The notes: a model not told the origin generated them from the letters alone. Numbered from the stretch's first letter, positions 3,001 through 61,488 are shown. The stretch is 61,488 nt of DNA from an uncultured Planctomycetia bacterium (GCA_964440235.1 CAYTQI010000002.1:36686-98173), one strand, 5' to 3'. Program-made: numbers and translations.

Positions 3001-4280
3001 AAAGTAAATACGGGGATAAGTTAAGGGATTGCTATACAAAATCCCCCGATGAGTTTTTACGGTTTACAGATCCGGATAATCTTGCTCAACCATTTTTCGC
3101 AGCGATAACTACGGGAGTATCAGGCGAAGTAATTGGTTCAGAAGAAGCCGAGTTTTGCAATTACATTATAGTCCTGGATAAGATAAGAAAAAAAGCCGCG
3201 TTAATTCATACGGATAATTATAAATTTTTGACGAATGCTGAAAATGCCTTGAAAAAAACCTGTAAAATGCTGGATCTTGTTTTGGGAGAAAGAGATTATA
3301 TAGAAAAAAATACTTTAGCAATTATCGCGAAAAGGCCGGCTATATCCGGGGAAATATCCGACGTCACCGCTTCTAAGATTGAGGCACTGTTCAAAAAAGC
3401 CGCTAATAATCTTGGCCTCCCGTTGCTGGAAACAGATACAAGCAGGCACTGGATAAAAAATAAAGTAGTATTTACGGTAGATGAAGGATCGTTACTCGCG
3501 TTGTCCCCGGAAGGAACGGTTTTGCGCTCCATTGATATGTATGAGATGGAGAAAAAAGGCAGATTTGCGGAAAGAAGGCCGGTACTTCGTAACTTCAGTG
3601 AGCCTGAACAGCTGGCAGAGAACTGGAAAGAAGCGGCGATTTCTACGCTGCTTTCGGGAAGAAAAATCGCGTTGTTTTTCAGCCGTAAATTAAGGGGCTA
3701 TGATAAGCATCACCCGCAGCTGCGGGATGATATAGAAAAATGGAAAGAAAATATGACGCGAAAATACCCCCGCTCTCGCAGCTTGATGAACAATTTGATC
3801 ACAGGGGATTTTGAGACACTCGAAGAGCTGAATACGTCTCTGGAAGGGTTGCGGGAGGAGCGCGGGGTAGATTTAAGCGATCAAAGCAAAGATTTTATCT
3901 TTACATTCGAGCCGGAAAACGAGAAAGTTGGCGCGGAAAATCTACCGAGGGCATTAAGGCCCGTTTATATAAAAATTAAGGAAAAGAAAAATGGAGAATT
4001 CAGAACTAATGAATTCTATGATCCGAGCCTGGATATATTAACGATTTCGGTCATGGCCGCGTTTTTCGAACTCAATGCCGATGATATATATCGTATTTTC
4101 GAAGGTATCGGGATAAACAGGCGGAAACTCGAAGAAGATATGAACATATGCGGTATCGACGAAGATAAAAATGGAAACGCATTTCTTATCTTTACCGTTA
4201 TTCCGCGCGCAAAGGCTTATGAGCATAATGGGATGAGAAACCGCAACAAGGTCAGGGCGCAATTTACCCGCGCCGCATAA
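3..4280 (+). CDS. Large orphan multidomain protein, 5'-truncated by the window (>1425 aa): HTH, papain/transglutaminase-like C-H-D motif, class I SAM methyltransferase, CheD/YfiH-like C-H motif, C-terminal domain ending FTRAA
   Basis: The frame is open from base 3 (TRKSIAKEAGLSELTITNRKKANPEIKAAIEKAL precedes the ORF-track TTG at 102). Motifs: TCMGHA...HVW...YIIDA; DVADMGAAHG...DAIE...SDLFE...IVFSPP; EFCNYIIVLD...AALIH. Confidence 0.85.
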   Translation, partial: TRKSIAKEAGLSELTITNRKKANPEIKAAIEKALVEREPFSGDGKLIKGTGSGSVYTNFLGAGNLQHWGGKLLQLLVRCIRNYSGILVKKLHYGEVGTTPSYLFSERNDARNGRPLASAAEDKFPFAADKNAQQGLVTSTISKGSDEVKRPQVKTQAKIGYLPGNINSAQREDRAPGDRLLFPISGQETMAIWPASFSYHVDSMLAPLKDKSFRDIVLMERSPFINVRLVKKIIFLLMTREDAFNPETGYMITAGGWKSLDLPFISGRKIDKIVRTQSFPGFINGEGMDNKFGTKSLVVIRKKWGKIVAEIPEKIMIEELMREENFGFQRKLARAFRRKRGVVGVWFIDYERLRNSMRLPLVTIENARDFAMTLQYNNTRLSSGALLEKEIKKTQDLAEIARKHGKKFVGRFDLHDWGFTDKTYSLRPMLGEEGELVGVFKRFFPAENWSVKYLKNENRGSIDPSTSDPFGPTLYVYTGTENDKEKIPIGNMAERKGLYEKVARETREFIAKHRKNFLKNGLEIVTCMGHAFEVKRRLKKYGIESDLFFWIDEKMHLYHVWARTEDGYIIDAYTLDEGISRILSFDEDRESEYSGIEIAKFPGASEDSEKWNAIAAKLEREESAYNNPAAVKRTKSHALRPESHPGSRHLKTPCKDSGTLLSAKALSVALPDSVAAEKNTFITGAEKPVREIFYAKMMKILQNHGFENGFTRENLIGIYFSEFGERLFIRDADTFILYALKIGWIRNYPDRENVFIFTQEWDKWVLREEEPTFNVQDAGIFSDEALRSYLCEIIRPGMDVADMGAAHGQRAVVSARLGARVDAIEIHRMTLLEAIERFKAQPAEIRGRIRAVLSDLFENSLLRGKKYDVIVFSPPRVNEKKPSLASDFRRIIEDHEFRLLGRFLDEAKLHLKGDGKIVLAYGIDDEIGDEDGHVFMGGMQTLARLGKDVWTMRRVSSDPDAFFAIYELTFKTAKPLGSVTLSEGKESANPALRRKTAWLESKYGDKLRDCYTKSPDEFLRFTDPDNLAQPFFAAITTGVSGEVIGSEEAEFCNYIIVLDKIRKKAALIHTDNYKFLTNAENALKKTCKMLDLVLGERDYIEKNTLAIIAKRPAISGEISDVTASKIEALFKKAANNLGLPLLETDTSRHWIKNKVVFTVDEGSLLALSPEGTVLRSIDMYEMEKKGRFAERRPVLRNFSEPEQLAENWKEAAISTLLSGRKIALFFSRKLRGYDKHHPQLRDDIEKWKENMTRKYPRSRSLMNNLITGDFETLEELNTSLEGLREERGVDLSDQSKDFIFTFEPENEKVGAENLPRALRPVYIKIKEKKNGEFRTNEFYDPSLDILTISVMAAFFELNADDIYRIFEGIGINRRKLEEDMNICGIDEDKNGNAFLIFTVIPRAKAYEHNGMRNRNKVRAQFTRAA

Positions 4281-4380
4281 CAGCGTAACAATCTTATTAA
4301 TCAACGAACTATGTCAACCGTCTAGACTGAAAAGGATTAGCCGGTCGTGATTAGGATATCAAAAAGTTTGATTACCCGCC

Positions 4381-4409
4381 TTGACGCTTTTGCAGTTTTC
4401 AGGTATACT
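4381..4409 (+). promoter_or_regulatory. Sigma70-type promoter
   Basis: TTGACG (4381-4386), 17 nt spacer, TATACT (4404-4409). Confidence 0.7.
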
Positions 4410-4427
4410 TAATTTGAGCCCGGAAAA

Positions 4428-4462
4428 GCCTTTAAGTCGTTTTGACCGAAAGGCAGTTTTTT
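4428..4462 (+). terminator. Terminator-like hairpin in the leader of the 4515 gene (possible attenuator)
   Basis: GCCTTT-aa-GTC-gtttt-GAC-cg-AAAGGC followed by AGTTTTTT. Confidence 0.45.
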
Positions 4463-4514
4463 ATTTTTTGTAATTAAAAAGATTTAAAAAGTGTTTGTAA
4501 GGAAGGGGTTTGAA

Positions 4515-4874
4515 ATGAGAGAGTTAATATTCAAGAACCTGATGGCCCCCGCCGCGAAAAAAAGGGATATTTCAGTCGAGGAAATAGTGGAGAAGAACGG
4601 CCTGGTTTCCTCCACAACTAAAAGGTCCATATACTTTGTGCGCGGTTCTCACAGAATCAAGTCCAGGGATGAATTGAAGCACTGGATAGATCGGCGAAGA
4701 AAAAACGCGGGCTTGAATAAGAAATTTTTTCATATTCTACGCGAATATTCAGACCGCGACAAGAAAGACAAGCTAATGTGCAAGATGAGAGGTTCGTTCT
4801 ACGTGATTTCCGGTGAATCGGTATATAACATAGTTTTTGTGCACGCGATAAGGATAAGAATAAGTAGATCATAG
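4515..4874 (+). CDS. Hypothetical basic protein (~119 aa)
   Basis: ORF downstream of a good promoter. ATG at 4515 follows GGAAGGGG and is preferred over the GTG at 4491. No recognisable family. Confidence 0.7.
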   Translation: MRELIFKNLMAPAAKKRDISVEEIVEKNGLVSSTTKRSIYFVRGSHRIKSRDELKHWIDRRRKNAGLNKKFFHILREYSDRDKKDKLMCKMRGSFYVISGESVYNIVFVHAIRIRISRS

Positions 4875-4888
4875 CAGAAAGCGGCAAA

Positions 4889-5023
4889 ATGGATTTGTAT
4901 CATCTGCACCCGGAACACGCGAAAGGCCTGATACACATGCTGATATTTCTTGCGGTCCTTTTTAAGGTTCACGTGATCGACAGGAAAATAAGCATGCTTG
5001 AGAAAACAGTCATAAACAAATAA
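4889..5023 (+). CDS. Small 44-aa putative membrane protein (below the ORF-track cutoff)
   Basis: MDLYHLHPEHAKGLIHMLIFLAVLFKVHVIDRKISMLEKTVINK has one hydrophobic stretch and fills the gap between the 4515 gene and the terminator. Confidence 0.5.
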   Translation: MDLYHLHPEHAKGLIHMLIFLAVLFKVHVIDRKISMLEKTVINK

Positions 5024-5057
5024 AGCCCGCGAAAAATTTTTAAAACGGGGCTTTTGG

Positions 5058-5090
5058 GAGGGGCGTAAAGTTTACGCTCCTCTTTTTTTT
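5058..5090 (+). terminator. Rho-independent terminator
   Basis: GAGGGGCGTAAA-g-TTTACGCTCCTC followed by T8. Confidence 0.8.
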
Positions 5091-5188
5091 GATGAAACCG
5101 TGATTTGCGGTAGACACAAGCGGTTGCTGTAAATCATAAATTCAAACTAAACCGGACGGCGCAAAGCGCCCGAAGAATCTCATTTTAT

Positions 5189-5217
5189 TTGACTATGGCC
5201 TGTATATATGATAATAT
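5189..5217 (+). promoter_or_regulatory. Sigma70-type promoter for gpsA
   Basis: TTGACT (5189-5194), 17 nt spacer, TAATAT (5212-5217). Confidence 0.5.
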
Positions 5218-5223
5218 TTGGCT

Positions 5224-6216
5224 ATGGTGAAAACGCCAATAGCTGTTCTCGGAGACGGTGGATGGGGGACGACCGTAGCAATACTCCTTGCCAATAAGGG
5301 GTATGATATCACCGTGTGGGGGGCGTTTCCTGATCATATATCAGTTTTGAAAAAAGAAAGGATTAACCGGAAGTTTCTTCCCGGAATACAGATACCGGGA
5401 AGGATTCGCTTTACATCCGAGGCGGCCGATGTAAGAAAATGCTCGATAGCCGTAATCGCGGTGCCGTCAAAATACCTGCGTAGTACACTGAAAATATTTG
5501 AAGGAAAAATCGCCGAGAAAGCGGTTTCGCTTACGAAAGGTATCGAGGAAGATACTTTTAAGAGGCCTTCCGAGGTTATATATGATGTTTGCGGCCCTAT
5601 TAAAATAGCGGTTGTTTCTGGTCCGACAATATCATTTGAGGTAGCGCGCGATCTTCCCGCTACTGTTGTCGCGGCCTCCCCGGACAGGGCGTTTGCCGGG
5701 GAAATACAGAATATTTTTACAACTCCGAATTTCAGGGCATATACCTCCGTGGATGTGATTGGCGTGGAGCTCGGAGGCGCTTTAAAAAATGTAATAGCTA
5801 TCGCGGCCGGCATTTCTGACGGAATGGGTTTTGGCGTAAACTCAAAAGCGGCGCTTCTTACGAGAGGTTTGGCCGAGATTATTCGTTTCGGGGACAAATT
5901 AGGCGCGAAAAAAGAAACATTTTTCGGATTAAGCGGATTGGGCGACCTTGCCACGACTTGCATGAGCGACCATTCGAGAAATCGCTGGTTCGGGCAGGAA
6001 ATCGCCAAAGGAAGGAAACCGAAAGATGTACTTGGGGGAACCGATATGATAGTTGAAGGCGTGACTACGGTCAGGTCCGCTTACGAATTGTCTAAAAAAA
6101 ACGGGGTAGAAATGCCTATAACGCAGAAAATTTATGAACTTTTATATCGCGGTAAAAAGCCGGAAGACGCTGTAAGGGAGCTTATGACACGGGCTCTTAA
6201 ACAGGAGGAATTATGA
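5224..6216 (+). CDS. gpsA: NAD(P)H-dependent glycerol-3-phosphate dehydrogenase
   Basis: GDGGWGT Rossmann motif, GVELGGALKNVIAIAAG, GLSGLGDLATTC...SRN. Confidence 0.97.
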   Translation: MVKTPIAVLGDGGWGTTVAILLANKGYDITVWGAFPDHISVLKKERINRKFLPGIQIPGRIRFTSEAADVRKCSIAVIAVPSKYLRSTLKIFEGKIAEKAVSLTKGIEEDTFKRPSEVIYDVCGPIKIAVVSGPTISFEVARDLPATVVAASPDRAFAGEIQNIFTTPNFRAYTSVDVIGVELGGALKNVIAIAAGISDGMGFGVNSKAALLTRGLAEIIRFGDKLGAKKETFFGLSGLGDLATTCMSDHSRNRWFGQEIAKGRKPKDVLGGTDMIVEGVTTVRSAYELSKKNGVEMPITQKIYELLYRGKKPEDAVRELMTRALKQEEL

Positions 6217-7502
6217 GAGTTGTTAATGTCGGGCTTATAGGGTTCGGAACCGTCGGCAAGGGCGTTGTAAAGGCGCTTCTTTCCAAAAAAGGAATTCTTA
6301 AGGTGAAATCCGGTATTTCCGTAAACCTGGCCAAGATTGCCGATAAGGATTTAAGGTCAGGGCGCGGTTTTAGTGTACCGGGAAAACTTCTTACCAGGGA
6401 CGTGGACTCGGTCATAAAAGATAAAGACATAGATGTCATCGTAGAGCTGATAGGCGGAATACACCCCGCGAAAGAGATTATCCTGAAAGCGCTATCGCTG
6501 GGTAAGCGGGTTGTTACGGCAAATAAGGCGCTCCTCGCCGAATACGGGATGGAAATATTTACCGCGGCGTCGCGTTTTCAAAGCTCGGTTGGATTTGAGG
6601 CAAGCGTTGGCGGCGGCATACCCATTATCGCCCCGTTAAAAAAATCGCTGGTGGCAAATGACATACAACTTATATATGGGATACTAAACGGCACTTCAAA
6701 TTTCATTCTTAGCAAGATGTCCGAGGAGGATTGTTCTTTTATTGAGGCGCTGAAAGACGCAAAGGAAAGGGGTATAGCCGAGAAAAATCCGAAATTAGAT
6801 ATAAGCGGCGGGGATTCGTGCCATAAGCTTGCTATACTGGCCTTGATGGGATTCGGATTTAATGTCAAACTGAAAGATATCTATGTTGAAGGTATCGAGG
6901 GCCTGGATCCGACGGACATGCAATATGCTAAAAACTGGGGATATGATATTAAGCTGTTGGCTATAGGGAAAAAAATCGGCAGTGCATTGGATCTCAGAGT
7001 CCATCCGACCCTGATTTCCCTGAAAAGTATTTTGGCGGGCGTAAAAGGCGAAAATAACGCTATATTTGTCAGGGGTGACATGGTCGGGGAAACGCTTTTT
7101 TACGGCCGGGGCGCCGGCAGCCTTCCGACCGCGAGTTCCGTTGTGGGTGATATTATGAAAATCGCCGAAAGTATAACCGCGAAAATCCCGGCACAACCTT
7201 TTAAACCGGAATTCAACGGAAGTATTAAAAAAATACGAAAAATCAATGATTTGAACGTCAGGTATTATATCAGGTTTTCCGCCATTGACAGGCCCGGTGT
7301 TTTGTCCAGAGTTTCCAGTATACTGGCGCAAAACGGAATAAGCATAGCTACTGTTTCGCAGAAAGAAAGAAAAAAAGGCCAGCCGGTTCCTATAGTTATG
7401 CTGACACATTACGCGAACGAAGGCAGGATGAATAAGGCGCTGGCAAAAATAAAAAAATTACCGTTTATAACAAAAAAGCCCGTAGGAATAAGAATAGCGT
7501 GA
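6213..7502 (+). CDS. hom: Homoserine dehydrogenase with C-terminal ACT domain
   Basis: [42 protein letters not shown] motif [13 protein letters not shown]. Confidence 0.97.
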
Positions 7503-7507
7503 TAGGC

Positions 7508-8578
7508 ATGGGTGTAATAGAGAGATACAGAAAATATCTGCCCGTAACCGGTAAAACACCGATAATTTCTTTGAATGAAGGAGATACCCCTCTTGTAAGG
7601 GCCCCGCATATTGAAGAGCTGCTTGGCGGTTTTGCGGAGGTTTATCTTAAGTACGAAGGGTTGAACCCGACAGGTTCTTTTAAGGACAGGGGCATGACCC
7701 TTGCAATATCAAAAGTTGTTGAAGAGGGTTCAGGGGCGGTTATTTGCGCATCGACCGGGAACACTTCCGCTTCAGCGGCGGCTTACGCGGCCCGAGCCAA
7801 AATAAAGTGTGTTGTTCTCATACCTGAGGGTTCGATTGCCCTGGGGAAACTCGCGCAGGCGCTTATACACGGGGCCGAGGTTGTAGCGGTAAAAGGAAAT
7901 TTCGATGACTGCCTGAAACTCGTAAAAGAAATTACCGAAAAATACCCCATTACCCTGGTTAATTCCCTGAATCCTTACAGGATTGAAGGGCAGAAGACAG
8001 GCGCTTTTGAAATTTGCGATTCTTTGAAATGCGCGCCGGATTACCACGCTATTCCCGTGGGAAATGCCGGCAACATAACCGCTTACTGGATGGGATACAA
8101 AGAGTACAGGCAAGCCGGCCGGATAAATGCCCTGCCGAAAATGATCGGATTTCAGGCTGCCGGTTCCGCGCCTATAGTAAAGGGGCATGTTATAAAAGAC
8201 CCCAAAACCATAGCGACCGCGATAAAAATAGGAAATCCGGCCAGCTGGAAAAAGGCCGAGGCCGCGCGCGATGAATCGGGCGGGCTTATAGAAGCGGTAA
8301 GCGATGATGAAATTTTAAACGCGTATGAATTGGTTGCTTCGAAGGAAGGCGTATTCGTTGAGCCGGCATCGGCCGCGAGTGTCGCAGGGGTATTAAAGAA
8401 AGCGAAAGAGGGGTATTTTAAAAACGCAAACCGAAAACCGCGAGCCGAAAAACCGCGGATTGTCTGTGTATTAACCGGGCACGGATTGAAAGACCCCGAC
8501 AGGGCGATAGCGAGCGTTAAGAAACCGAGGGTGTTACCGGCAAAGTTAGACGCAATTATAAAAGAGGCCGGTTTGTGA
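7508..8578 (+). CDS. thrC: Threonine synthase
   Basis: [15 protein letters not shown] (PLP lysine), [38 protein letters not shown]. Confidence 0.97.
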
Positions 8579-8590
8579 TTATGAAGGCGA

Positions 8591-8729
8591 TTTTCACGGC
8601 GGGAATGCTTTATTAAATGCCGGGACGTAGCGCAGTTTGGTTTAGCGCGCTTGCTTGGGGTGCAAGAGGTCAGCGGTTCAAATCCGCTCGTCCCGACCAA
8701 CGGAATAGAAAACATTCCCGCCGGGAAAA
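8591..8729. repeat. 17-bp inverted repeat enclosing tRNA-Pro
   Basis: TTTTCACGGCGGGAATG (8591-8607) pairs with CATTCCCGCCGGGAAAA (8713-8729), 16 of 17 complementary. Confidence 0.8.
8621..8699 (+). tRNA. tRNA-Pro (anticodon GGG), CCA encoded
   Basis: Cloverleaf: acceptor CGGGACG/CGTCCCG, anticodon stem CTTGC/GCAAG with loop TTGGGGT, T-loop TTCAAAT. Confidence 0.97.
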
Positions 8730-8849
8730 TTTAAAGAAACGCGCTTGGGCGCAAGGAGTCAACGGTTGGAATCCGCTTAGCGGTGCCCGGTGTGATGCCG
8801 GAAAATTTTTACGAAGGGAAATTTATATTTAAGGCCGAAGGGATAAAAC

Positions 8850-10061
8850 ATGAAGTACATAGTTCTGGTCGGTGACGGGATGAGTGATCGGCCAATCGAC
8901 GAGTTGAACGGGCGTACGCCGTTGGAGGTTTCTCATTGCCGGAACATGGATGAAATTGTGGAAAAAGGCCGGATCGGCACCGCCTCTACCGTTCCAAAGG
9001 GCATGATACCGGCCAGTGACGTTGCGAATCTTTCAATACTTGGCTATGATCCAAAGAAATATTATTCCGGAAGAGGGCCGCTGGAAGCTGAGAATATAGG
9101 CGTTAATTTAGGCGAAAAAGATATTGCTTTCAGATGCAACCTTGTTACCGAAGCCGGGGATAAAATGGTAGATTATTCCGCCGGGCATATAACCTCGAAA
9201 GAGGCGCAGGTCCTCATGGAAGCGATAGATAAGGAGCTTGGCAGCGAGAGTGTAAAATTTTATCACGGCATAAGCTACAGAAACCTTATGGTTTTAAAGG
9301 CAAAATTCAAGGAAGAGGCGCTAAAATTTTCTAAAATAAAATGCATGCCGCCTCATGATATAATGAATAAAAATATTTCAAAAAACCTTCCCAGGGGTGA
9401 AGGGCAAAAAATACTGATAGGATTGATGAAAAAGTCCCGGGAAATCCTTGCGCATACGGATGTCAACAAAGTCAGAATAGACCTGGGCGAAAATCCCGCC
9501 AGCATGATATGGTTGTGGGGGCCGGGTGGAAAACCTGAGATGCCTCTTTTTAAGGATCTTTACGGCGTGAAAGGTTCGATAATTTCGGCGGTAGACCTTA
9601 TTAAGGGCATTGGCAAGATAATAGGCCTGGACGTGATAAATGTGCCGGGCGCCACCGGATATTACGATACCAATTACATCGGAAAGGGCGAATACGCGCT
9701 TAAAGCCCTTGAGGAAAAGGATTTTGTATTCGTACATGTAGAGGCGCCTGATGAAGCGGGCCATAATGGTGATATCAGAGAAAAAATCGCGGCCATAGAA
9801 AATTTCGATAAATTTGTGGTGGGAAAGATTTGGGGGGAATTTAAGAAAAAGAAGAATTTCAGGATAATGGTTTTACCGGACCACGCGACCCCGATATCCT
9901 GCAGGACGCATACTATCGACCCGATACCTTTCGCGATTTGCGGCGAGGATATCACGCCTGACGGGGCTCACGTTTTTACGGAAGCCGCTTCCCGGGCCGC
10001 CAAATTTAATGTCGGCGAAGGATGGCTTTTGATGAAATACCTGATTCACGCGAGGGTATAG
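8850..10061 (+). CDS. apgM: ApgM-family cofactor-independent phosphoglycerate mutase homolog (possible homoserine kinase substitute, TIGR02535-like)
   Basis: KYIVLVGDGMSD, PASDVANLSILGYDP, FVFVHVEAPDEAGH, VLPDHATP; located in the hom/thrC/lysC cluster. Confidence 0.9.
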   Translation: MKYIVLVGDGMSDRPIDELNGRTPLEVSHCRNMDEIVEKGRIGTASTVPKGMIPASDVANLSILGYDPKKYYSGRGPLEAENIGVNLGEKDIAFRCNLVTEAGDKMVDYSAGHITSKEAQVLMEAIDKELGSESVKFYHGISYRNLMVLKAKFKEEALKFSKIKCMPPHDIMNKNISKNLPRGEGQKILIGLMKKSREILAHTDVNKVRIDLGENPASMIWLWGPGGKPEMPLFKDLYGVKGSIISAVDLIKGIGKIIGLDVINVPGATGYYDTNYIGKGEYALKALEEKDFVFVHVEAPDEAGHNGDIREKIAAIENFDKFVVGKIWGEFKKKKNFRIMVLPDHATPISCRTHTIDPIPFAICGEDITPDGAHVFTEAASRAAKFNVGEGWLLMKYLIHARV

Positions 10062-10064
10062 TGT

Positions 10065-11702
10065 ATGGGGTCGATAATAGTAATAATAGCCGGGTCCGCG
10101 TTATTTCTTTTTGGATATCTTTTCTACAGTAAAAAAATAGAGAAATTTCTCAGGATCAACCCGGGCAGAAAAACACCCGCCTATACGAAGTACGATGGGG
10201 TGGATTATGTTCCGGCCAGGCACTGGTCGGTTCTTTTCGGGCATCATTTCGCGTCCATAGCGGGAGCGGCCCCGATAATAGGCCCGGTACTCGCTATTTC
10301 CATCTGGGGCTGGGCGCCTACGCTGATTTGGGTAGTGCTGGGAAGCATATTTATAGGCGGATTGCATGACTATCTGGCGCTTTTCATTTCAGTCAGGCAT
10401 GGCGGTACTTCCGTAGCCGATATTGCCAAAGACGCCATATCAAAAAACGCGAAAATCGTTTTTTTAATTTTTTTGTGGCTTACGCTCATTCTCATAATCT
10501 CGGTATTTGTAAATATTTGCGCCAGGACCTTTGTCGTGAAACCGGCGATAGTACTTCCGTCACTCGGGCTTATTCCCGTCGCGGTTTTCGTGGGTTTTCT
10601 GCTTTATAACCTGAGGATTAATCAGGCTGTGGCCACGATTTTGGGGCTTTTTTTTCTGGGTATCCTTATGTTTTTGGGAAAAATATTCCCGATAACGCTC
10701 GGACAGAATGCTTTGCGTATCTGGAGCGCAGTTCTCCTCATTTATGCTTTTACCGCGAGCGTTACACCGGTCAATATACTTCTTCAGCCAAGGGACTATC
10801 TTGCGAGTTACCTTCTTTTGTTCGGTATTATTTTTGGATACACCGGGCTTTTGATAACCCGGCCCGAATTAAATTTTCCGGCGTTTCTCGGACAAAGCCA
10901 GGAAATGAACGCCCTCCCTTTATGGCCTGTTCTTTTTGTTACGGTTGCCTGCGGGGCGATAAGCGGGTTTCATTCCGTGGTAGCCAGCGGTACCACGTCA
11001 AAGCAGCTTGCCAATGAAAAAGACGCGAGAAAGATAGGATATGGGGCGATGCTCGCCGAAGGTATTCTCGCCATGCTTGCCATACTGGTTATCGCGGCGG
11101 CTTTCAAGGACAGAAATATTTTAAATTCTATGGTGAATAAAGGGGCCGGTCCGGTAGGCGCCTTCGCTGTGGGTTATAGCGCGGTCACAAAAATTTTTCT
11201 TGGTAATTTTGGAGGCATTTTTGCTATGCTGATACTCAACGCCTTTATTCTTACTACGCTGGATACAGCAACGAGAATAACGCGGTATCTCACACAGGAG
11301 CTTTTTAGAATAAAAAATCGTTTCACCGCGACCATAATCGTAGTGGCGCTTTCGGGATGGCTCGGATTGAGCGGGCAATGGAATGAGATTTGGCCGATTT
11401 TCGGTTCCGCGAACCAGCTTATTGCCGCCCTTACGCTGATTGTTGTTACGAGCTGGTTTCTTTCAAGGAGAAGGGTATTTTTTTATACGCTTATTCCTAT
11501 GCTTTTCATGCTGGCTACGGCATCAGGCGCCCTCATACTGAAGATTAAGGAATACAGCGTTACAAACAATATGTTACTTCTGGTTATTTCAGTTGCGCTT
11601 TTGTTCCTTGCCGGTTTTGTTTTTTTCGAGGCGGCGATAGCGATAAAGCGCATATTTAACACGCGAAAAAATTTGTTTGGAGCGGCAAGAGCCAAACATT
11701 AA
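10065..11702 (+). CDS. cstA: Carbon starvation protein A family transporter
   Basis: DGVDYVP...[48 protein letters not shown]. Confidence 0.93.
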
Positions 11703-11722
11703 AAAGGGTAAGAACTAAAATT

Positions 11723-12943
11723 ATGGCGAAGAAACTGATAGTCCAGAAATACGGCGGATCAAGCGTGGCGAATGCGGAAAAAATCATTAGGGTCGCCAAA
11801 CGGATCGTTTCCTACAGGAATAAAGGTTACGATATTGTTGTTGTCGTAAGCGCCCTGGGGGACACTACTGATGAATTACTTGGGCTGGCTTCTGAAATAA
11901 ACCGGACTCCTTCCGAGAGAGAGCTTGACATGCTTATTTCAACAGGCGAACAGGTTTCCGTGTCGCTTCTCGCGATGGCCGTGCATAAACTGGGAAAAGA
12001 GGCAATTTCATTTACCGGCGCCCAAGTTGGAATTATAACCGATTCCTCTCATACAAAAGCGAGGATCCTTGACGTGAACGCTAAGAGGATAAGAGAGGAA
12101 CTTGGTAAGGGGAAAATAGTTGTGGTTGCCGGTTTCCAGGGCGTAAATCTTGACAGGGAAATAACCACTCTGGGTCGCGGCGGTTCCGACATGACAGCTG
12201 TCGCGCTCGCGAAGGTGCTTGGCGCCGATGTTTGCGAAATATATACGGACGTAGACGGCGTTTACACGGCGGATCCCCGCCTGGTGAAAGACGCCAAGAA
12301 ACTTGATATCATAAGTTACGAAGAAATGCTGGAACTTGCCTCGCTGGGAGCGCAGGTGTTGCAGGCTAGAAGTGTTGAGGCGGCCAGTAAATTTAATATA
12401 CCGATTCACGTTAGAAACAGTTTTTCTGATAAGAAGGGCACGTATATAACCAAGGAGGTCAAGATCATGGAAGATGTGCTTGTAAGCGGGATAACTTTGA
12501 CCAAAAATGAGGCCAAGGTAACGGTGTGTGGTGTTCCGGACCGACCTGGTAACGCTGCCCGAATTTTCGGCGAAATGGCAAAAGCCAATATTAATATCGA
12601 CATGATAATTCAAAACGTTTCGAGAACCGGCACGACTGATGTTTCATTTACCGTGGTAACGGGCGATCTCGCTAAAACCTTGAAGGTCATGAAAAAAACA
12701 GCCGCGTCCATAAGCGCTGAAGGTGTAACTTTTGATAAAGGGATAGCCAAGGTATCGGTAGTCGGGATCGGAATGCGCAGCCACTCCGGTATCGCGGCGG
12801 TTATGTTCGGCGCGCTTGCCGAGAAAAAGATAAATATAGAGATGATCTCAACCAGCGAAATAAAAATATCGTGTATCGTGAGAAAAGTAAAAAGCGAAAA
12901 GGCGGTGCGCGTTTTGCACAAGGCCTTCGGGCTGGGAAAGTAA
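11723..12943 (+). CDS. lysC: Aspartate kinase
   Basis: [39 protein letters not shown], two ACT domains. Confidence 0.97.
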
Positions 12944-12953
12944 GGGGCAAAAT

Positions 12954-14525
12954 ATGAAAGTTGAACTATATGACACGACCCTACGGGACGGCGCTCAGGC
13001 GCAGGGGGTTTCATTTTCCGTTTCAGACAAACTAAGAATTGTCGAGAAACTCAATGCCCTGGGAATCCAATATATTGAGGGCGGATGGCCCGGAGCCAAT
13101 CCAAAAGATATTGATTTTTTTAAAAAAGCGGGAAAACTCAAACTTGCCGGTTCTAAACTGGTTGCTTTCGGAAGCACGATGCGCGCCAATACCGCTGTAT
13201 CAAAAGATGCCACCATGAAAGGGTTGCTGCTTTCCGGGACGGATGTGATAACTTTATTCGGTAAAAGCTGGGACCTGCACGTAAAAGAAGTACTAAAAAC
13301 GACGTTCGGGGAAAACCTCAGGATGATCGAAGAGTCTGTTAGATATCTGAAATCCAAGGGCAAATCCGTGATGTTTGACGCTGAACATTTTTTTGACGGT
13401 TATATGAAAAATCCCGAATACGCCATGAAGACCATTTTTGCCGCCGAAAAGGGCGGCGCGGAAAGAATAATTCTTTGCGATACAAACGGAGGTATGTTGA
13501 CATCGAATATATTCAAGATAGTTAAGGATGTAAGAAAAAAAATAAAAACCCCTCTCGGGATACATACCCATAACGATAACGACATGGCAGTCGCAAATAC
13601 CATAGCGGCGGTCGAGGCGGGTTGTATCCAGGCGCAGGGAACCATAAACGGTTATGGCGAAAGATGCGGCAATGCCGACCTTGTTTCCATTATCGGTAAC
13701 CTTAAGCTGAAACTCGGCGTGGATTGCGTTTCAGATATTTCGCTTAAAGCGTTGACGGAGACGGCGTATTATATCGCAGAGATCTGTAACATGAAATTGA
13801 ATGACACGCAACCCTTTGTGGGGCAAAGCGCCTTTGCGCACAAGGCGGGTGTGCACATAAACGCCATATTGAAAAACCATAGGTCGTATGAACATGTGGA
13901 TCCTGCCATGGTAGGCAACAGAAGAACGCTTCTTATCTCCGAACTTTCGGGTAAGTCCAGCATTCTTAAAAAAGCTGAGGAAATGGATCTGGACCTTGAA
14001 AAGAAGGCGGCAAAGACAAAAAAAATCCTGAAAGCCCTTCAGAAAATGGAATATAAGGGTTATCATTTTGAAGCGGCCGGGGCGTCGCTGGAACTTTTTA
14101 TGAAAAAGTCGGTTAAAAAAATTAAAAAGTTTTTTGAACTTCAGGATTTCCGCGTCATAGTGGAAAAACGCAAAGGCCGCAAAATTACGTCGGAGGCCAC
14201 TATCAAACTGAGTGTTAAGGGAAAACTTGAGCACACGGCTTCTCTCGGTGACGGGCCTGTGGACGCTCTTGACAGGGCTCTTCGGAAGTCGCTTGAGGGT
14301 TTTTACCCGTCTTTAAACGAAATGCACCTTACGGATTTCAAGGTAAGGGTTCTGGATGAAAAGGCGGGCACGGCTGCCAAGGTCAGGGTCTTAATTCAGT
14401 CGCAGGACAAGACGCGGTCATGGTGGACCATCGGTGTATCAGAGAACGTCATCGAGGCCAGCTGGCAGGCACTTATAGATTCGGTCGAGTATAAATTATT
14501 GAAGGATAGCGAGGCATCCACGTAA
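12954..14525 (+). CDS. cimA: Citramalate synthase (LeuA/CimA family)
   Basis: YDTTLRDGAQ, IEGGWPGANPKD, FDAEHFFDG, HTHND, GYGERCGNA, FAHKAGVH. Confidence 0.9.
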   Translation: MKVELYDTTLRDGAQAQGVSFSVSDKLRIVEKLNALGIQYIEGGWPGANPKDIDFFKKAGKLKLAGSKLVAFGSTMRANTAVSKDATMKGLLLSGTDVITLFGKSWDLHVKEVLKTTFGENLRMIEESVRYLKSKGKSVMFDAEHFFDGYMKNPEYAMKTIFAAEKGGAERIILCDTNGGMLTSNIFKIVKDVRKKIKTPLGIHTHNDNDMAVANTIAAVEAGCIQAQGTINGYGERCGNADLVSIIGNLKLKLGVDCVSDISLKALTETAYYIAEICNMKLNDTQPFVGQSAFAHKAGVHINAILKNHRSYEHVDPAMVGNRRTLLISELSGKSSILKKAEEMDLDLEKKAAKTKKILKALQKMEYKGYHFEAAGASLELFMKKSVKKIKKFFELQDFRVIVEKRKGRKITSEATIKLSVKGKLEHTASLGDGPVDALDRALRKSLEGFYPSLNEMHLTDFKVRVLDEKAGTAAKVRVLIQSQDKTRSWWTIGVSENVIEASWQALIDSVEYKLLKDSEAST

Positions 14526-24964: not shown

Positions 24965-24998
24965 ATAGGGCGGGTTGCCAAAACCCGCCCTATTTCTT
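24965..24998 (+). terminator. Rho-independent terminator after groEL
   Basis: ATAGGGCGGGTT-gccaa-AACCCGCCCTAT followed by TTCTTT. Confidence 0.85.
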
Positions 24999-25105
24999 TA
25001 TCCAGTTTGCCTATTTCAACCGCGGCAGCTTAACAGCTTGCCTGTGTTAGGAAAAAAATAGTAAGTAAGGTTTTACATTACCGTGACATTTCGAAAATAA
25101 ATTTG

Positions 25106-25114
25106 TGATATACT
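25106..25114 (+). promoter_or_regulatory. Candidate extended -10 promoter for the 1113-aa gene
   Basis: TG-a-TATACT about 50 nt upstream of the ATG, with no clear -35. Confidence 0.4.
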
Positions 25115-25163
25115 ACATGAAAATCGCAGTGTAAAAATTTACTAAAAGAAGAAAAATAAAAAA

Positions 25164-28100
25164 ATGAAAAAAATATCGGCAATCGTTACGATCTTGTGCT
25201 TTTTATCGGGCAATGTAAGTTTTGCGTTTGATGCCGACATAAATAACGCGCCACATTACGGCGTTAACCTGGCGGCTAATTACGCTACCGATGATATCTT
25301 ACCGGGAGACCACACCATCGGCATGATAGAGCTTGAGATGCAGCTTAGGCTTATTGAGAGTAAACGCGGCCTGATTCCGCCAGGCGAGAGTGAATTAAAA
25401 GTGGAATTCTTAAAAAACGCCAGACAGGCAAAAACATTAGGGGACGCCGGTCAAATAAGAGTAAAACACGGCGAAAACAAAATTGATATTTATCCGGCCC
25501 AACTAAAACTTATTGATGACTTAATATGCCGCATTCCCGTATCCATAACGAGAGGCAATGAGAGAACAGAGGATTTTCGATTGCTGTTTTCAATCCGGCC
25601 GTTTGAAGATGACGGAAAAACAATATACCCCATAGCACCGGATACGGATGAAGCATTGCGGTTATTAAACGAAGCCGTTGAAAGAGAGGAAAATAATACG
25701 GGCGAAAAAACAAAATCCGAAACAAGGCGCCCGGAAACAGCTGACAGCGGCCCGGAATTAAAACTCGATGCGAGCGGTGAAATCAGCCATGACAATAAGG
25801 CGACGCGGAAAAGAACCGGCCCCGGCGGGCGCAAACGTGTTACAAGCGGAACAAAACTTGTTCCCGATGAAACTTATGTGTGGAGTGAAAAAAACGGAAT
25901 AGGCCTTTTTCGCAAAGGCAGCTTTCAAACGCGGCTTACAGTGCGTTTTTGGCGCGAAGATGGCACGTATCGTGACGTGGAACTGACAAAAGCCTCATTT
26001 CTTTCAGGTGGGCTTCAACCCCTTTATCTTGCTTTGCCCGAAGACATTACAGCACTTATGAATTCTTTGAGCATAGCTGATGATAACAAAGAAAAATACC
26101 AGGAAAAACGCCGTAAAATCGGCAAAAAAGCTAACGGCGTATTAAGGAATAGCCGAGGGCCCGCCGGCGACCATATTAGCTTCCAGGTCTTTAGTTTTTT
26201 TCAGCGCATAGAAGATTATAATGCTCCGAATGTTAGCGATGGTGAACTGACAAAAGCCGAATCTATAATTAAAAAAATAGAAGATGTTAGAAAAGCGCGG
26301 GATAACGGGATTTACGATCATTTCAGGCATGCCACATCCGTGGAGAGGCTAATTATTTCCCTGTTATTATCATTTCCTATCCAAACAGTACTTTCCGTTC
26401 ATTCGATTCGGAATTATATAAAAAAACAAGGATTGAATAATTTAAAGGCAACACTTAAGGGAAAATTAAATGCGCAGGGTAAAATCAAAGATGAAGTTAT
26501 AGAAGATATTATAACAGGAACGAAAAGATTATTTCGGGAAGAAAAAAGTAATACATACGGATGGAAAGCGTGGATTGCAAAACATCATTCCGAAGAAAAC
26601 CCTTTTGACGTAATCGAACGCTGGGTAAGGGACGCGATTCCGGTTGTGGAAAGCATCCTGAAGCACGAGCTCCTGGCGGATGATCCGGCAAATCCTGCCG
26701 AAGAACAGGGGCCTGGGATTATGAATGGCGTAACGCCCGAGGGAGGCCGGCCCGATAAGAGCGCCCAAGCGCCTACCAAACCCCGCGATGAAAGAGGCAG
26801 GTATAAGGAAGAAGAAGGAAAGAGCCCGGAAGGTATTTTAAAAGTTATCGCGGTATATCTGCCGCAGCAGGCACTTTTCACAGCGCGGGATATTTTTGAA
26901 ATATATAAGGCGCATTATGAAGAGCATGGATTTGAGGCTCCCGCGGAAAATTCCGAATCGGCGCTTCGCACAATAAAAAGGGATTTGCATGAAAAATCCG
27001 ATTCGCTTGTAAATCAAGGAATTTTAGAGATTTTTCCCGAAAGGGGTAAAAATGGAGAATATCTTTATCAATTAACGCGAAAAGGCGCAGCGAAAATTGT
27101 ATCGATAAGGGGTAAATATGAGGCGGAAAGGGAAAGGTTGGCCGGAACGGCAGCCCTTACGGATTTGGCGCGAAAAGCCGTTTTTGGCGAAATACAGCTC
27201 GATAAATGCCTAAAGCACGGCAATAAACCAGAATTAAAAAAAGAGCCGGAAGTTAGAGCTCAAATTCAAAAAGCGCGGCGAGAATTTAACCAATTACTGG
27301 CAACCGTTAATGACATTGACACACTCCGGCGCGTTCTGAACTCTTTAGAATCGTTTCAAAGCAGCGCAAGCGAAAAAGAGGGAAGCGAGAAAGGTTATTA
27401 TGCGCCTTATGTCGCACAGGCGCGGTTACGAATACTGAGTGTTCCGATAGGGCAATTAGGGTTTTCAGCAAAGGCGCGTAATGTATTAGAAAAGATAGGC
27501 ATTAAAAATCTCGGTGATTTGATTGAAAAAGGAATAACTGAAGAAGACATTTTGAAACATAGTAATATCGGCCGGAAAACTGTCAGCGAAATATACGGTA
27601 TGCTCGCGCGGCTCGGCGAAAAATTACCGCCTATAACAAAAGCCGATGTTTCAATAAAGGATGCGGGCCTTTCCGTAAGGGCTCATAAAGTATTGAAAAG
27701 TATGGGTATTAAAGATCCCGCCGAGTTGCTTACGAAGGGAATAACCGAAGAAGACATTTTGAAACACAGGAATATCGGCCGGAAAACTGTCAGCGAAATA
27801 TACGGTATGCTCGCGCGGCCCGGCGAAAAATCGCTGTTTACAGCGAACCAGTCCGGCGAATCTATAACCGGCACGGTTACGGGAGAATTTCCTACGGCAG
27901 ATCTCCTTCATTTAATGCCCGGTGAAAACGCGGGTGATGTGTCAGGATCCGCAGTGTCGTATACGGATAGAGAAAAAAAGGCGCTTGCGAAGTATGATAG
28001 AAACGGATTGGATAGAGAGCGCCTGGCGGAATCGTTAAGCGCGTTATTGACGAGAGAGGTAATAATTGATGACAATTCCGCGTTTATTTTTTCCGAGATC

Positions 28101-28505
28101 GCGACTTTCGGGCGATATAACGAAAAAAACGAGTATGAATTCGGATTGATAAGATTGCTTCCGAAGCTTGCGGAAGCCGGTATTAAGGTTGCGGTTATCG
28201 CAAGAAATGACGCGCAGCGAAATTTTATATCTAAACTCAATGAGGGAAAACCTGAAAGAGAGAGAATAGGGTTCGGTAATAGTATAGCCGAAATGAAACC
28301 CGATTTACAAGTAGCCAGGTGTTATTATCTAAAGGTCGAAAACGATGAGCCGGTACCGGGTGAAAGCTTAGGCTTTGTAAGCGTTTGCGACATAACGCAT
28401 ATCGTAAAACAAATCGTTAAAAATCTGGGCAGAGCCTGCGGTGTTGTCAACGAATTATTACCGGATCTATACCGCGCGGCACAAAAATTCAGTCAGGCGG
28501 CATAA
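25164..28505 (+). CDS. Orphan 1113-aa protein: signal peptide, winged-helix-like domain, two tandem RNA polymerase alpha-CTD-like domains, C-terminal domain ending FSQAA
   Basis: N-terminus MKKISAIVTILCFLSGNVSFA. Repeats GFSAKARNVLEKIGIKNLGDLIEKGITEEDILKHSNIGRKTVSEI and GLSVRAHKVLKSMGIKDPAELLTKGITEEDILKHRNIGRKTVSEI match the alpha-CTD pattern LSVRxxNxLKxxGIxTIGDL...EEDLLKxxNxGRKSxxEI. Confidence 0.9.
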   Translation: MKKISAIVTILCFLSGNVSFAFDADINNAPHYGVNLAANYATDDILPGDHTIGMIELEMQLRLIESKRGLIPPGESELKVEFLKNARQAKTLGDAGQIRVKHGENKIDIYPAQLKLIDDLICRIPVSITRGNERTEDFRLLFSIRPFEDDGKTIYPIAPDTDEALRLLNEAVEREENNTGEKTKSETRRPETADSGPELKLDASGEISHDNKATRKRTGPGGRKRVTSGTKLVPDETYVWSEKNGIGLFRKGSFQTRLTVRFWREDGTYRDVELTKASFLSGGLQPLYLALPEDITALMNSLSIADDNKEKYQEKRRKIGKKANGVLRNSRGPAGDHISFQVFSFFQRIEDYNAPNVSDGELTKAESIIKKIEDVRKARDNGIYDHFRHATSVERLIISLLLSFPIQTVLSVHSIRNYIKKQGLNNLKATLKGKLNAQGKIKDEVIEDIITGTKRLFREEKSNTYGWKAWIAKHHSEENPFDVIERWVRDAIPVVESILKHELLADDPANPAEEQGPGIMNGVTPEGGRPDKSAQAPTKPRDERGRYKEEEGKSPEGILKVIAVYLPQQALFTARDIFEIYKAHYEEHGFEAPAENSESALRTIKRDLHEKSDSLVNQGILEIFPERGKNGEYLYQLTRKGAAKIVSIRGKYEAERERLAGTAALTDLARKAVFGEIQLDKCLKHGNKPELKKEPEVRAQIQKARREFNQLLATVNDIDTLRRVLNSLESFQSSASEKEGSEKGYYAPYVAQARLRILSVPIGQLGFSAKARNVLEKIGIKNLGDLIEKGITEEDILKHSNIGRKTVSEIYGMLARLGEKLPPITKADVSIKDAGLSVRAHKVLKSMGIKDPAELLTKGITEEDILKHRNIGRKTVSEIYGMLARPGEKSLFTANQSGESITGTVTGEFPTADLLHLMPGENAGDVSGSAVSYTDREKKALAKYDRNGLDRERLAESLSALLTREVIIDDNSAFIFSEIATFGRYNEKNEYEFGLIRLLPKLAEAGIKVAVIARNDAQRNFISKLNEGKPERERIGFGNSIAEMKPDLQVARCYYLKVENDEPVPGESLGFVSVCDITHIVKQIVKNLGRACGVVNELLPDLYRAAQKFSQAA
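27531..27831 (+). repeat. 94-nt direct repeat (27531-27624 and 27738-27831), 207 nt apart
   Basis: Four mismatches over 94 nt; encodes the C-terminal halves of the two alpha-CTD-like units. Confidence 0.95.
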
Positions 28506-28511
28506 CATGTT

Positions 28512-28553
28512 TAGCGCATAGCGCTTAACGGACAGGGAGTAGAACACAGGGCG
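28512..28553. repeat. Degenerate heptamer tandem array
   Basis: TAGCGCA TAGCGCT TAACGGA CAGGGAG TAGAACA CAGGGCG. Confidence 0.5.
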
Positions 28554-28583
28554 GGTCAAAAACGACCCGCTCTGTTGTTTTTT
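28546..28583 (+). terminator. Rho-independent terminator after the 1113-aa gene
   Basis: ACAGGGCGGGTC-aaaaac-GACCCGCTCTGT followed by TGTTTTTT. Confidence 0.8.
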
Positions 28584-28601
28584 GGCCTCTTTGCTTTGCT
28601 G

Positions 28602-28630
28602 TTGACAAGATCGGCTTATTATATTAATAT
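28602..28630 (+). promoter_or_regulatory. Sigma70-type promoter for guaB3-dnaE
   Basis: TTGACA (28602-28607), 17 nt spacer, TAATAT (28625-28630). Confidence 0.65.
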
Positions 28631-48896: not shown

Positions 48897-48973
48897 GTCC
48901 CTGTAGCTCAGCTGGATAGAGCACAGGTTTCCTAAACCTGGTGTCGTCCGTTCGAATCGGACCAGGGACGCCA
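48897..48973 (+). tRNA. tRNA-Arg (anticodon CCT), CCA encoded
   Basis: Acceptor GTCCCTG/CAGGGAC, anticodon stem CAGGT/ACCTG with loop TTCCTAA, T-loop TTCGAAT. Confidence 0.97.
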
Positions 48974-55202: not shown

Positions 55203-55206
55203 ATTC

Positions 55207-55333
55207 TTAATCTTCGGGGCGAGGTGAAATACCTCGGCCGGTAGTGAAAGCCTACGAGCCCTGAACCTGCGCGGTTCGGGGCAGATCCGGTGAAATTCCG
55301 GGGCCGACCGTATAGTCGGGATGAGAGAAGAGA
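55207..55333 (+). ncRNA. FMN riboswitch (RFN element)
   Basis: ATCTTCGGGGCGAGGTGAAATACCTC..CCGG..GAAAGCC.ACG...GATCCGGTGAAATTCCGG..CCGAC.GTATAGTCGGGATGAGAGAAGA, upstream of ribBA. Confidence 0.95.
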
Positions 55334-55368
55334 CCGCTCGGATTTAAGCGAGTTATATGAATCGAATA

Positions 55369-55395
55369 AGCCCCGAAGAAATTCGGGGTTTTTTT
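55369..55395 (+). terminator. Riboswitch-controlled intrinsic terminator
   Basis: AGCCCCGAA-gaaa-TTCGGGGTT followed by T5, ending at the ribBA ATG. Confidence 0.85.
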
Positions 55396-61412: not shown

Positions 61413-61488
61413 CGGGAAGTAGCGCAGTTTGGCTAGCGCGCTTGGTTCGGGACCAAGAGGTCGCGGGTTCAAATCCCGCCTTCCCGAC
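61413..61488 (+). tRNA. tRNA-Pro (anticodon CGG), last bases cut by the window end
   Basis: Acceptor CGGGAAG/CTTCCCG, anticodon stem CTTGG/CCAAG with loop TTCGGGA, T-loop TTCAAAT. Confidence 0.96.

Follow-up and report, generated by a model that had tools for sequence, protein, structure and literature searches.

In bacterial RNA polymerase, the two alpha subunits occupy minor-groove sites on the full UP element, and ComEA-type DNA receptors use helix-hairpin-helix (HhH) domains on extracytoplasmic DNA. MARTX and polymorphic toxins are secreted proteins of large size that join constant trafficking parts to exchangeable payloads, the payload differing between close relatives. Effectors of parasites tend to resemble the proteins of their hosts, so that those of a parasite of prokaryotes would resemble prokaryotic cytoplasmic proteins. 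Omnitrophota are widespread, uncultured, ultra-small bacteria that are suspected to be predators or parasites, and the means by which they act on their partners are a puzzle. Their genomes encode Tad complexes, ATP/ADP translocases, and other host-dependence traits, bear signs of predation or parasitism, and commonly specify type IVa pili (PMC10066038). Passages of one preprint describe loci resembling type II secretion systems and type IV pili near giant genes, for which roles in predation are proposed (bioRxiv 10.1101/2023.11.21.568195), and passages of another describe longer Omnitrophota proteins with signal peptides ahead of metabolic Pfam content (bioRxiv 10.64898/2026.06.07.730766). The subject of the present analysis is a 1113-amino-acid (aa) protein, here called X, encoded by the open reading frame (ORF) 25164..28505 (+) of a 61,488-nt stretch of DNA (the window; GCA_964440235.1, CAYTQI010000002.1:36686-98173) deposited as an uncultured Planctomycetia bacterium; the ORF lies exactly where a preliminary description of the window had placed it, and all evidence on X and its family is computational. 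X carries two domains of the type found at the C-terminus of the RNA polymerase alpha subunit (alpha-CTD), a winged-helix-like module, and an export-type leader, and belongs to a family that is undescribed in the literature and profile libraries searched, where neither a secreted alpha-CTD nor an Omnitrophota glycolytic enzyme with a signal peptide was found. What is new here are two undescribed domains and, for the first time, alpha-CTD modules that follow a signal peptide.

The two alpha-CTD domains of the preliminary description are borne out by profile searches. RNA_pol_A_CTD (PF03118) matches two stretches of X (E = 2.2e-25, 88.6 bits vs a gathering cutoff of 23.8) and is, apart from a sub-threshold HTH_7, the only Pfam domain in the protein; in a phmmer search of the PDB with X, the best matches are B. 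subtilis alpha-CTD chains (E ~ 9e-6) and other chains of this type. The proposed spacing of 69 aa between the units is visible in the DNA as a direct repeat (27440-27624 vs 27647-27831) with an offset of 207 nt and 80% identity. The second part of this repeat (KGITEEDILKH.NIGRKTVSEIYGMLAR; 27530-27646 vs 27737-27853) shows 84% DNA identity and the first part 64%, an unevenness that suggests partial gene conversion or uneven constraint. Residues were numbered on an E. coli alpha-CTD reference that is identical to PDB chains. At the E. coli positions, unit 1 has K265, N268, V269, N294, G296, K298, and T299, and unit 2 has R265, K268, V269, N294, G296, K298, and T299. Of the residues that had been listed, N294, G296, and K298 are thus kept in both units, but R265 is found only in unit 2, unit 1 having lysine at this position. 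Measured against the 265 determinant (R265, N268, C269, G296, K298, and S299), the changes in X are mostly conservative, and binding to DNA is predicted from these residues. X has a 2-residue insertion before TEEDIL. In the model of full-length X, the helices lie in the right places for an (HhH)2 fold, with a predicted local distance difference test (pLDDT) value of only about 50-77; this AlphaFold2 model, built from 2 sequences, has an overall pLDDT of 36.6 and was used for secondary structure only. A full-length multiple sequence alignment made from domain fragments was dropped, as MAFFT misplaced 83 of the 93 fragments. The helical linker that precedes the units contains the start, at aa 705, of a weak match to a region of PglW. 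The closest sequence relatives of the units are leaderless proteins with tandem alpha-CTD domains: among leaderless proteins of ~440 aa (P0076, P0085, P0095, P0125, P0126, P0136, P0138, P0142, P0146, and P0151), many end in a tandem alpha-CTD pair, which indicates that such arrays are widespread outside RpoA, and an RpoA-like fragment (P0140) has three alpha-CTD domains.

The N-terminus of X is of the export type, and the signal peptide first noticed there is upheld by its three-region design and by conservation in the family. Because the reading frame is closed only 6 codons 5' of the ATG, the hydrophobic stretch does form the N-terminus of the protein. It consists of an n-region (MKK, charge +2), a hydrophobic core of ~13 aa (ISAIVTILCFLSG), and the segment NVSFA, with S-F-A at positions -3 to -1, followed by FDAD; X thus has the positive n-region, core of 7-15 residues, small residues at -3 and -1, and acidic or neutral mature start expected of a Sec substrate of signal peptidase I. 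The leader is also the only strongly hydrophobic segment in the whole protein. A predicted outer-membrane barrel protein encoded in the window has a leader of the same design, MKLLRIICVLALALSVTTGAYA, followed by ATQ, and the housekeeping enzymes of the window are without one. In the family, a leader of this type is present in 68 of the 79 long members that start with methionine and in none of the 31 proteins that match the alpha-CTD only. Its flanks have a net charge of +2.35 before and -0.79 after the hydrophobic stretch, and its c-region reads SxA, AxG, or GxA, with small residues at -3 and -1. Moreover, the 68 leader-bearing members contain only 3 internal hydrophobic segments in 126,384 residues, which argues against a second membrane pass and places the cargo on the same side as the N-domain. 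We infer from these sequence features that X is exported by Sec and cleaved after SFA. A second transmembrane segment at aa 396-414 (Kyte-Doolittle value 1.69) was rejected, the stretch lying inside a conserved helical module in a family without internal transmembrane segments, and a lipoprotein reading was rejected because X has no lipobox cysteine at +1.

X is one member of a modular family, which was defined by an exhaustive HMMER search (E <= 1e-3; 589 matches, with domain counts taken from the best 150 of the 589). Word-indexed searches were nearly empty, full-length X retrieving only its closest homologue (P0002) and a profile of the C-terminal domain 4 short entries, so that the exhaustive search was needed. 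Members range from 0.6 to 4.5 thousand aa, carry only the name 'hypothetical protein' in public annotation, and, as far as their sequences tell, share one architecture, namely a leader with an N-domain or LAPP-type motif, a variable middle, and a C-terminal domain (C-domain) of ~170 aa. P0002 has in common with X the leader, the N-domain, the linker with alpha-CTD, and the C-domain, and contains the winged-helix-like module in repeated copies. Scans of genome, viral, and metagenome contigs with an alignment of X and P0002 found no relative. A genome scan with a tight 6-sequence C-domain alignment (a 23-sequence alignment being too diverse for patterns) yielded 14 loci, all 14 of them in metagenome-assembled genomes (MAGs) of Candidatus Omnitrophota, 3 of which are auto-labelled Planctomycetia; the family appears to be confined to Omnitrophota. 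One Omnitrophota MAG (locus L006) has two leader-bearing genes head-to-tail, of which 3716-6301 encodes the family C-domain and 6355-13287 (~2300 aa) combines a leader of similar kind with an LA-type motif.

The cargo between the constant ends was surveyed by Pfam scans of 46 family members. Enzymes of sugar metabolism are represented by phosphofructokinase (PFK), hexokinase, glucose-6-phosphate isomerase, class I and class II fructose-bisphosphate aldolase, GlpX fructose-bisphosphatase, transaldolase, and PfkB kinases, and other enzymes by alanine and glutamate dehydrogenases, ADP-forming acyl-CoA synthetase modules, URO-D, and radical SAM. Regulatory and nucleic-acid-related cargo comprises AAA+ domains, MutS domain V, SecA-like modules, receiver and HATPase_c domains, and a complete NtrC-like set of receiver, sigma54 AAA+, and HTH_8; alpha-CTD cargo occurs in two further members, P0002 and P0025. 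Classic extracellular domains are essentially lacking in the 46 members, with LRR_4 as the only one. The PFK cargo of P0003 (aa 193-438) can be aligned with B. subtilis PFK, starting at residue 1 of the latter, and retains the motifs T(I/M)DND and GRHAG. It has GGDDT in place of the GGDGS of ATP-dependent PFKs; GGDDT is a sequence that we take to be the mark of pyrophosphate-dependent PFKs, and this payload may accordingly not need ATP. The earlier suggestion that modules of cytoplasmic type are exported is strengthened by these data, since glycolytic enzymes, dehydrogenases, and NtrC-like, MutS, and SecA-like cargo all stand between the same leader and end domains. Of the idea of an exported transcription mimic, the domain assignments and the export-type leader stand, and X is not a unique mimic, being one representative of the family.

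The profile hidden Markov model (HMM) of the C-domain matches X with E = 2.3e-63, and this domain is present in 101 of the best 150 matches, stopping at the last residue in 69 of the 101 and within a few residues of it in most others, with a conserved ...F(A/S)xAA-COOH end; in complete ORFs among the genome loci, it likewise finishes at the stop codon. AlphaFold2 applied to aa 935-1113 with a 45-sequence alignment gave a pLDDT of 95.8 and a predicted template modelling (pTM) score of 0.89, which indicates a conserved fold: two helices are followed by a five-stranded alpha/beta sandwich with beta1, a one-turn helix, and a beta-hairpin. Foldseek searches of the PDB and BFVD with this model returned nothing at E <= 1e-3 (best values, 3.6e-3 and 2.3e-3, respectively), and a profile search of the PDB gave no match. 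In both libraries, the best of the weak named matches are HAD-like hydrolases (template modelling scores of 0.35-0.41), among them YrbI/KdsC, the P-domain of P-type ATPases, the LNS2 domain of Nir2, and giant-virus HAD hydrolases, and the beta1, one-turn helix, and beta-hairpin of the C-domain can be likened to the HAD 'squiggle and flap'. However, HAD motif I (DxDxT) contains the aspartate nucleophile, and the C-domain has FSEKxTF instead; the nucleophile is thus absent. With no DxDxT and no significant fold match, an identity as a HAD enzyme was rejected, and we read the C-domain as a new member of the Rossmannoid group that is probably non-catalytic.

The N-domain HMM matches X with E = 1.1e-50, and the NLAANYATDD motif aligns with NLAPPL..DD of other members; the domain as a whole is found in about 16-18 of the best 150 family matches, and the motif LA[PAT][PASQ] occurs in 41 of the 68 leader-bearing members at a median residue of 36 (control windows, 0.8 +/- 0.9). 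Searches of Pfam and of the PDB, including a PDB profile search, found no relative of the N-domain or of the middle module, and homologues of the latter (aa 217-511) lie inside P0012, P0098, P0114, P0096, and P0006. The winged helix-turn-helix (wHTH) of the preliminary description, at 26823-27086, is the weakest part of the assignment. A 15-sequence profile of the module had a single PDB match, residues 30-117 of the MarR-family protein 2eth_A (E = 0.015), which span the wHTH core, and the model of X shows a helix-helix-helix-beta-beta topology at low pLDDT; among PHROG profiles, the module resembles a 'transcriptional regulator' (E = 0.16). A first profile of 4 sequences found nothing in the PDB. 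The module occurs in 1-3 copies inside many family proteins of 1,200-3,400 aa. The profile and the topology hint at a MarR-like core, and Pfam gives no match.

The gene for X forms a separate unit, as had been proposed: the groEL terminator upstream, a terminator of its own (28546-28575), and then the promoter of a guaB-like gene were all located (Table). Read directly from the sequence, its 5' leader is A-rich and without a strong Shine-Dalgarno sequence. An identical protein is encoded on 5 contigs on record, and on an independently assembled Joint Genome Institute contig, the gene order is coaX-groES-groEL-X-guaB-like-dnaE, as in the window. The neighbours of X are housekeeping genes, no competence genes were found nearby, an Rfam scan gave no match near the gene, and the window contains no paralogue of X, including by search with the family HMMs. 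In MAG JBARPB01, a family member lies directly 5' of the same guaB-like-dnaE pair; the guaB-like, dnaE, and aspS products of the window are 89%, 88%, and 78% identical to those of this MAG, the DNA of the two runs collinear starting at position 28599 of the window, and on such sequence comparison the window itself belongs to Omnitrophota. The JBARPB01 family protein, of 639 aa, is 35% identical to X in the leader and N-domain and 45% in the C-domain, and it has a different middle, without a Pfam match and without the winged-helix and alpha-CTD modules. The locus has thus kept its ends and exchanged its cargo between close relatives, evolving far faster than its flanks, a pattern that would be typical of genes under diversifying pressure. 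In the related MAG (locus L003), an extra small ORF (90-146 aa) lies between the family gene and the guaB-like gene at 2120-2557, where the window has a spacer of 178 nt.

Taken together, X may be an exported protein with constant ends and variable cargo, the cargo binding DNA and probably acting in a host or prey cell, a reading to which we assign a probability of roughly 0.4. The signal peptide would drive Sec export, and the N- and C-domains would serve sorting or delivery. The payload would be a DNA-binding array in which one winged-helix module of the MarR-like kind is joined by a pair of alpha-CTD (HhH)2 units borne on a helical stalk; once exported, this array could bind double-stranded DNA outside the cytoplasm of the producer. 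In particular, the two alpha-CTD units might occupy A/T-rich minor grooves about one helical turn apart, in the manner of the alpha subunits on a full UP element, and further affinity or specificity could come from the winged helix. The most likely site of action would be the cytoplasm of a host or prey prokaryote, in which X might cover DNA upstream of promoters or draw activators away from the resident alpha-CTD. This site is favoured because the payloads of the family are prokaryotic cytoplasmic proteins and parasite effectors tend to mimic host proteins, and because the phylum shows host-dependent traits and the X locus evolves like a conflict gene. The sequence data show the gene and its domains, its place in the family, ends that stay constant around swapped cargo, the limitation to Omnitrophota, the leader statistics, the lack of a re-entry segment, and a fast-evolving locus; an effect of X on transcription, its delivery into another cell, and its binding to DNA are inferred. 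A bolder version, in which the whole family would be the payload arm of an unrecognised route by which ultra-small, host-dependent Omnitrophota place prokaryote-type proteins, from upper-glycolysis enzymes and dehydrogenases to sigma54 activators, a MutS ATPase, and X itself, in the cytoplasm of bacterial or archaeal hosts, with X as an alpha-CTD decoy that would cover UP elements or titrate activators and the N- and C-domains as recognition handles, is rather doubtful.

Several observations weigh against this reading. Positions 259 and 261 of the '261 determinant', which contacts sigma region 4, are not kept in X, and the alpha-CTD unit of P0002 reads NIGPGIV, with K298 and S299 lost, so that the DNA contact is not uniformly conserved even in the closest homologue. 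The wHTH call rests on the PDB match and low-confidence model given above, with no Pfam match. Sec export with cleavage after SFA is a prediction, and a role of the N- and C-domains in export, sorting, or delivery is a guess from their position and conservation. Some cargo is ill-suited to Sec export, because radical SAM enzymes have to be loaded with Fe-S and the usual place of SecA-like, response-regulator, and HATPase_c modules is the cytoplasm of the producer. Finally, no secretion or injection machinery adjoins X or the other sampled family genes, whose neighbours are housekeeping genes.

A rival reading is that of a protein that never leaves the cell: X could be held at the membrane in the cytoplasm of its producer and tether DNA or recruit transcription factors, in a family that builds membrane-proximal metabolons. 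All sampled cargo is indeed of the producer's cytoplasmic type, the SecA-like, receiver/HATPase_c, sigma54 activator, MutS_V, URO-D, and radical SAM modules are without obvious substrates or cofactors outside the cytoplasm, the PFK cargo retains its catalytic motifs, and the genomic neighbours are housekeeping genes; the same paradox is met for long Omnitrophota proteins in passages of bioRxiv 10.64898/2026.06.07.730766. We nevertheless consider such a tether unlikely. The charge distribution of the leader, with an n-region of +2.35 and a net negative downstream flank, predicts an N-in/C-out orientation, and the core, apolar throughout and not amphipathic, stands before a conserved small-residue (-3,-1) site, as in the predicted outer-membrane barrel protein. 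In addition, no second transmembrane segment would return the chain to the cytoplasm, and fast divergence with cargo replacement at a syntenic locus would be unusual for a housekeeping tether.

Export without delivery has also to be weighed, that is, X as a periplasmic or surface binder of double-stranded DNA in the producer, comparable to ComEA or to the anchor of a secreted nuclease and using DNA as a nutrient or for uptake via type IV pili. The preliminary description had held that such domains would have no target in the periplasm, which is wrong in principle, since DNA outside the cytoplasm is the target of HhH domains both in ComEA-type receptors and in secreted nucleases. A signal peptide joined to HhH-type DNA-binding domains is the very logic of ComEA, the minor-groove residues of the alpha-CTD are kept in X when the sigma-contact determinant is not, and the tandem arrangement would confer avidity for A/T-rich DNA of any kind. 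Secreted DNases of halophiles carry HhH DNA-binding domains (PMC4486849), and type IVa pili are common in the phylum, as mentioned above (PMC10066038). However, Pfam assigns RNA_pol_A_CTD rather than a ComEA-type HHH domain to X, which has neither an SLBB nor a nuclease domain and no competence genes nearby. ComEA-type receptors are conserved, whereas the X locus swaps its cargo between close relatives; moreover, a periplasmic DNA binder would account for X alone and not for the sister proteins with ATP- or NAD-dependent enzymes in the same frame, which makes this explanation distinctly unlikely. That X is an artefact, a chimeric assembly or pseudogene-like fusion in which the alpha-CTD similarity has no function, is suggested only by its metagenomic source and by an N-domain and middle region without recognisable relatives outside the family. 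It is highly improbable, as the identical protein stands on the 5 contigs, with the same neighbours on the Joint Genome Institute contig, an intact frame of 3.3 kb ends in a terminator of its own, the architecture recurs in hundreds of family members, and the C-domain alignment gives a model with a pLDDT of 96.

Table. Features of the X gene and its borders, with positions counted from the first letter of the window
Feature	Residues	Position (nt)	Strand	Details and basis
groEL intrinsic terminator, upstream boundary of the X unit		24965..24993	+	12-bp stem, 7 GC pairs, T-run after
Upstream region of X		25030..25163	+	Weak promoter-like site TTAACA-18-AAAAAT at 25030-25059; 9/12 consensus matches; weak evidence
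Sec-type leader, MKKISAIVTILCFLSGNVSFA	1-21	25164..25226	+	Putative cleavage after SFA; hydrophobicity, family conservation
Family N-domain	22-170	25227..25673	+	LAPP-type motif NLAANYATDD (aa 35-44, nt 25266-25295); 54% identity to P0002
Middle module	217-511	25812..26696	+	Beta-hairpin then helices, ends in AIPxVExIL; homologous stretches in 5 proteins
Winged-helix-like (MarR-like) module	554-650	26823..27113	+	Opens with motif GKSPE; profile and low-confidence model
Long helical linker before the alpha-CTD units	651-754	27114..27425	+	Helices at pLDDT ~70; kept with alpha-CTD in P0002 and P0015
Alpha-CTD unit 1	755-821	27426..27626	+	Best PF03118 stretch, aa 755-815
Alpha-CTD unit 2	828-887	27645..27824	+	Second PF03118 stretch; B. 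subtilis alpha-CTD best PDB match, 27 bits
Family C-terminal domain, Rossmannoid alpha/beta	940-1113	27981..28502	+	Ends ...FSQAA; family HMM, AlphaFold2
Intrinsic terminator of X		28546..28585	+	12-bp stem, 8 GC pairs, then TGTTTTTTGG
Promoter of the guaB-like gene		28602-28630	+	Near-consensus; downstream of the X terminator

Some features of the window lie apart from X. All 41 genes listed between positions 1 and 61488 are on the + strand, the GC skew is positive throughout (0.03 to 0.2), and nearly all 2-kb bins have a positive AT skew; together, these values indicate an extreme strand bias with a purine-rich coding strand. An FMN riboswitch (RF00050, 94.9 bits) at 55206-55336 (+) lies directly 5' of ribBA (55357-56595; DHBP_synthase and GTP_cyclohydro2), and Rfam places three tRNA genes on the + strand, at 8621-8696, 48897-48970, and 61413-61487. 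A second large orphan, a 1392-aa ORF at 102-4280 (+) with a TTG start and without a hydrophobic leader, has no Pfam match at 1e-5 and no similarity to X or to the family HMMs.

With respect to the Omnitrophota puzzle, the X family offers testable questions: whether its members are exported, where they go, and what the two constant domains bind. Its payloads are precisely those that nobody would look for after a signal peptide. Should they be delivered into other prokaryotes, they would constitute a new class of effectors between bacteria, modelled on the housekeeping and transcription parts of their hosts, with X as the first alpha-CTD decoy known to be exported; if the family stays inside the cell, its leader would be a new type of tether by which a nanobacterium arranges metabolism and DNA at its membrane. 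In both cases, two conserved domains are new, one of them with a confident fold and no structural neighbour, and the family is a ready marker for mining Omnitrophota genomes.

Among described proteins, X is most like RpoA in its alpha-CTD units (PF03118), which keep N294, G296, K298, S/T299, and R/K265, the residues that bind UP-element DNA in RpoA, and, with a pair of units in each molecule, X mirrors RNA polymerase and its two alpha subunits. It differs from RpoA in that it is without the N-terminal assembly domain of alpha and bears its units in tandem, in one chain behind a signal peptide; an identity as RpoA was rejected, TIGR02027 scoring 68.3 bits vs a cutoff of 227.8 over the C-terminal part only, with no N-terminal domain in Pfam. 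PglW of the BREX system shares an alpha-CTD-like segment, and among defence-system profiles no other one reaches into X (PADLOC, E = 5.9e-8, aa 705-823), but X is not PglW: NF033442 reaches 22.9 bits vs a cutoff of 990, there is no kinase domain, and the match is to the shared HhH module only. An origin in a defence system or phage was likewise rejected, as PADLOC and PHROGs gave nothing beyond this segment and sub-threshold regulator matches. With ComEA, X has in common an N-terminal export or anchor signal and an (HhH)2-type domain for double-stranded DNA; in contrast to ComEA, its HhH is of the alpha-CTD type, it is about 5 times larger, has extra modules, and evolves fast, and an identity as ComEA was rejected, Pfam finding no ComEA-type HHH or SLBB domain.

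The constant ends and variable payload of the family recall MARTX and polymorphic toxins. RTX/MARTX repeats, processing or cysteine proteases, toxin or immunity modules, and a secretion partner are, however, absent from X, the 46 scanned members, and the sampled neighbourhoods; unlike these toxins, the family is apparently Sec-dependent, with housekeeping-type enzymes and DNA-binding modules as payloads. A further parallel lies within the phylum itself. As far as passages of the two preprints describe them, the giant proteins of Omnitrophota also have a signal peptide followed by cytoplasm-type enzyme and SecA-like modules and a suspected role towards host or prey, but they reach 10,000 aa and more and mostly have many transmembrane helices, whereas the X family spans the smaller sizes given above, is without internal transmembrane segments, and is defined by its shared N-domain or LAPP motif and terminal C-domain. 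Term searches of both preprints (bioRxiv 10.1101/2023.11.21.568195 and 10.64898/2026.06.07.730766) yielded nothing on alpha-CTD, helix-turn-helix, or DNA-binding, and the N- and C-terminal parts described in the passages do not include the end domains of X. X falls within a broader phenomenon, that of the signal-peptide-bearing multi-domain proteins of Omnitrophota.

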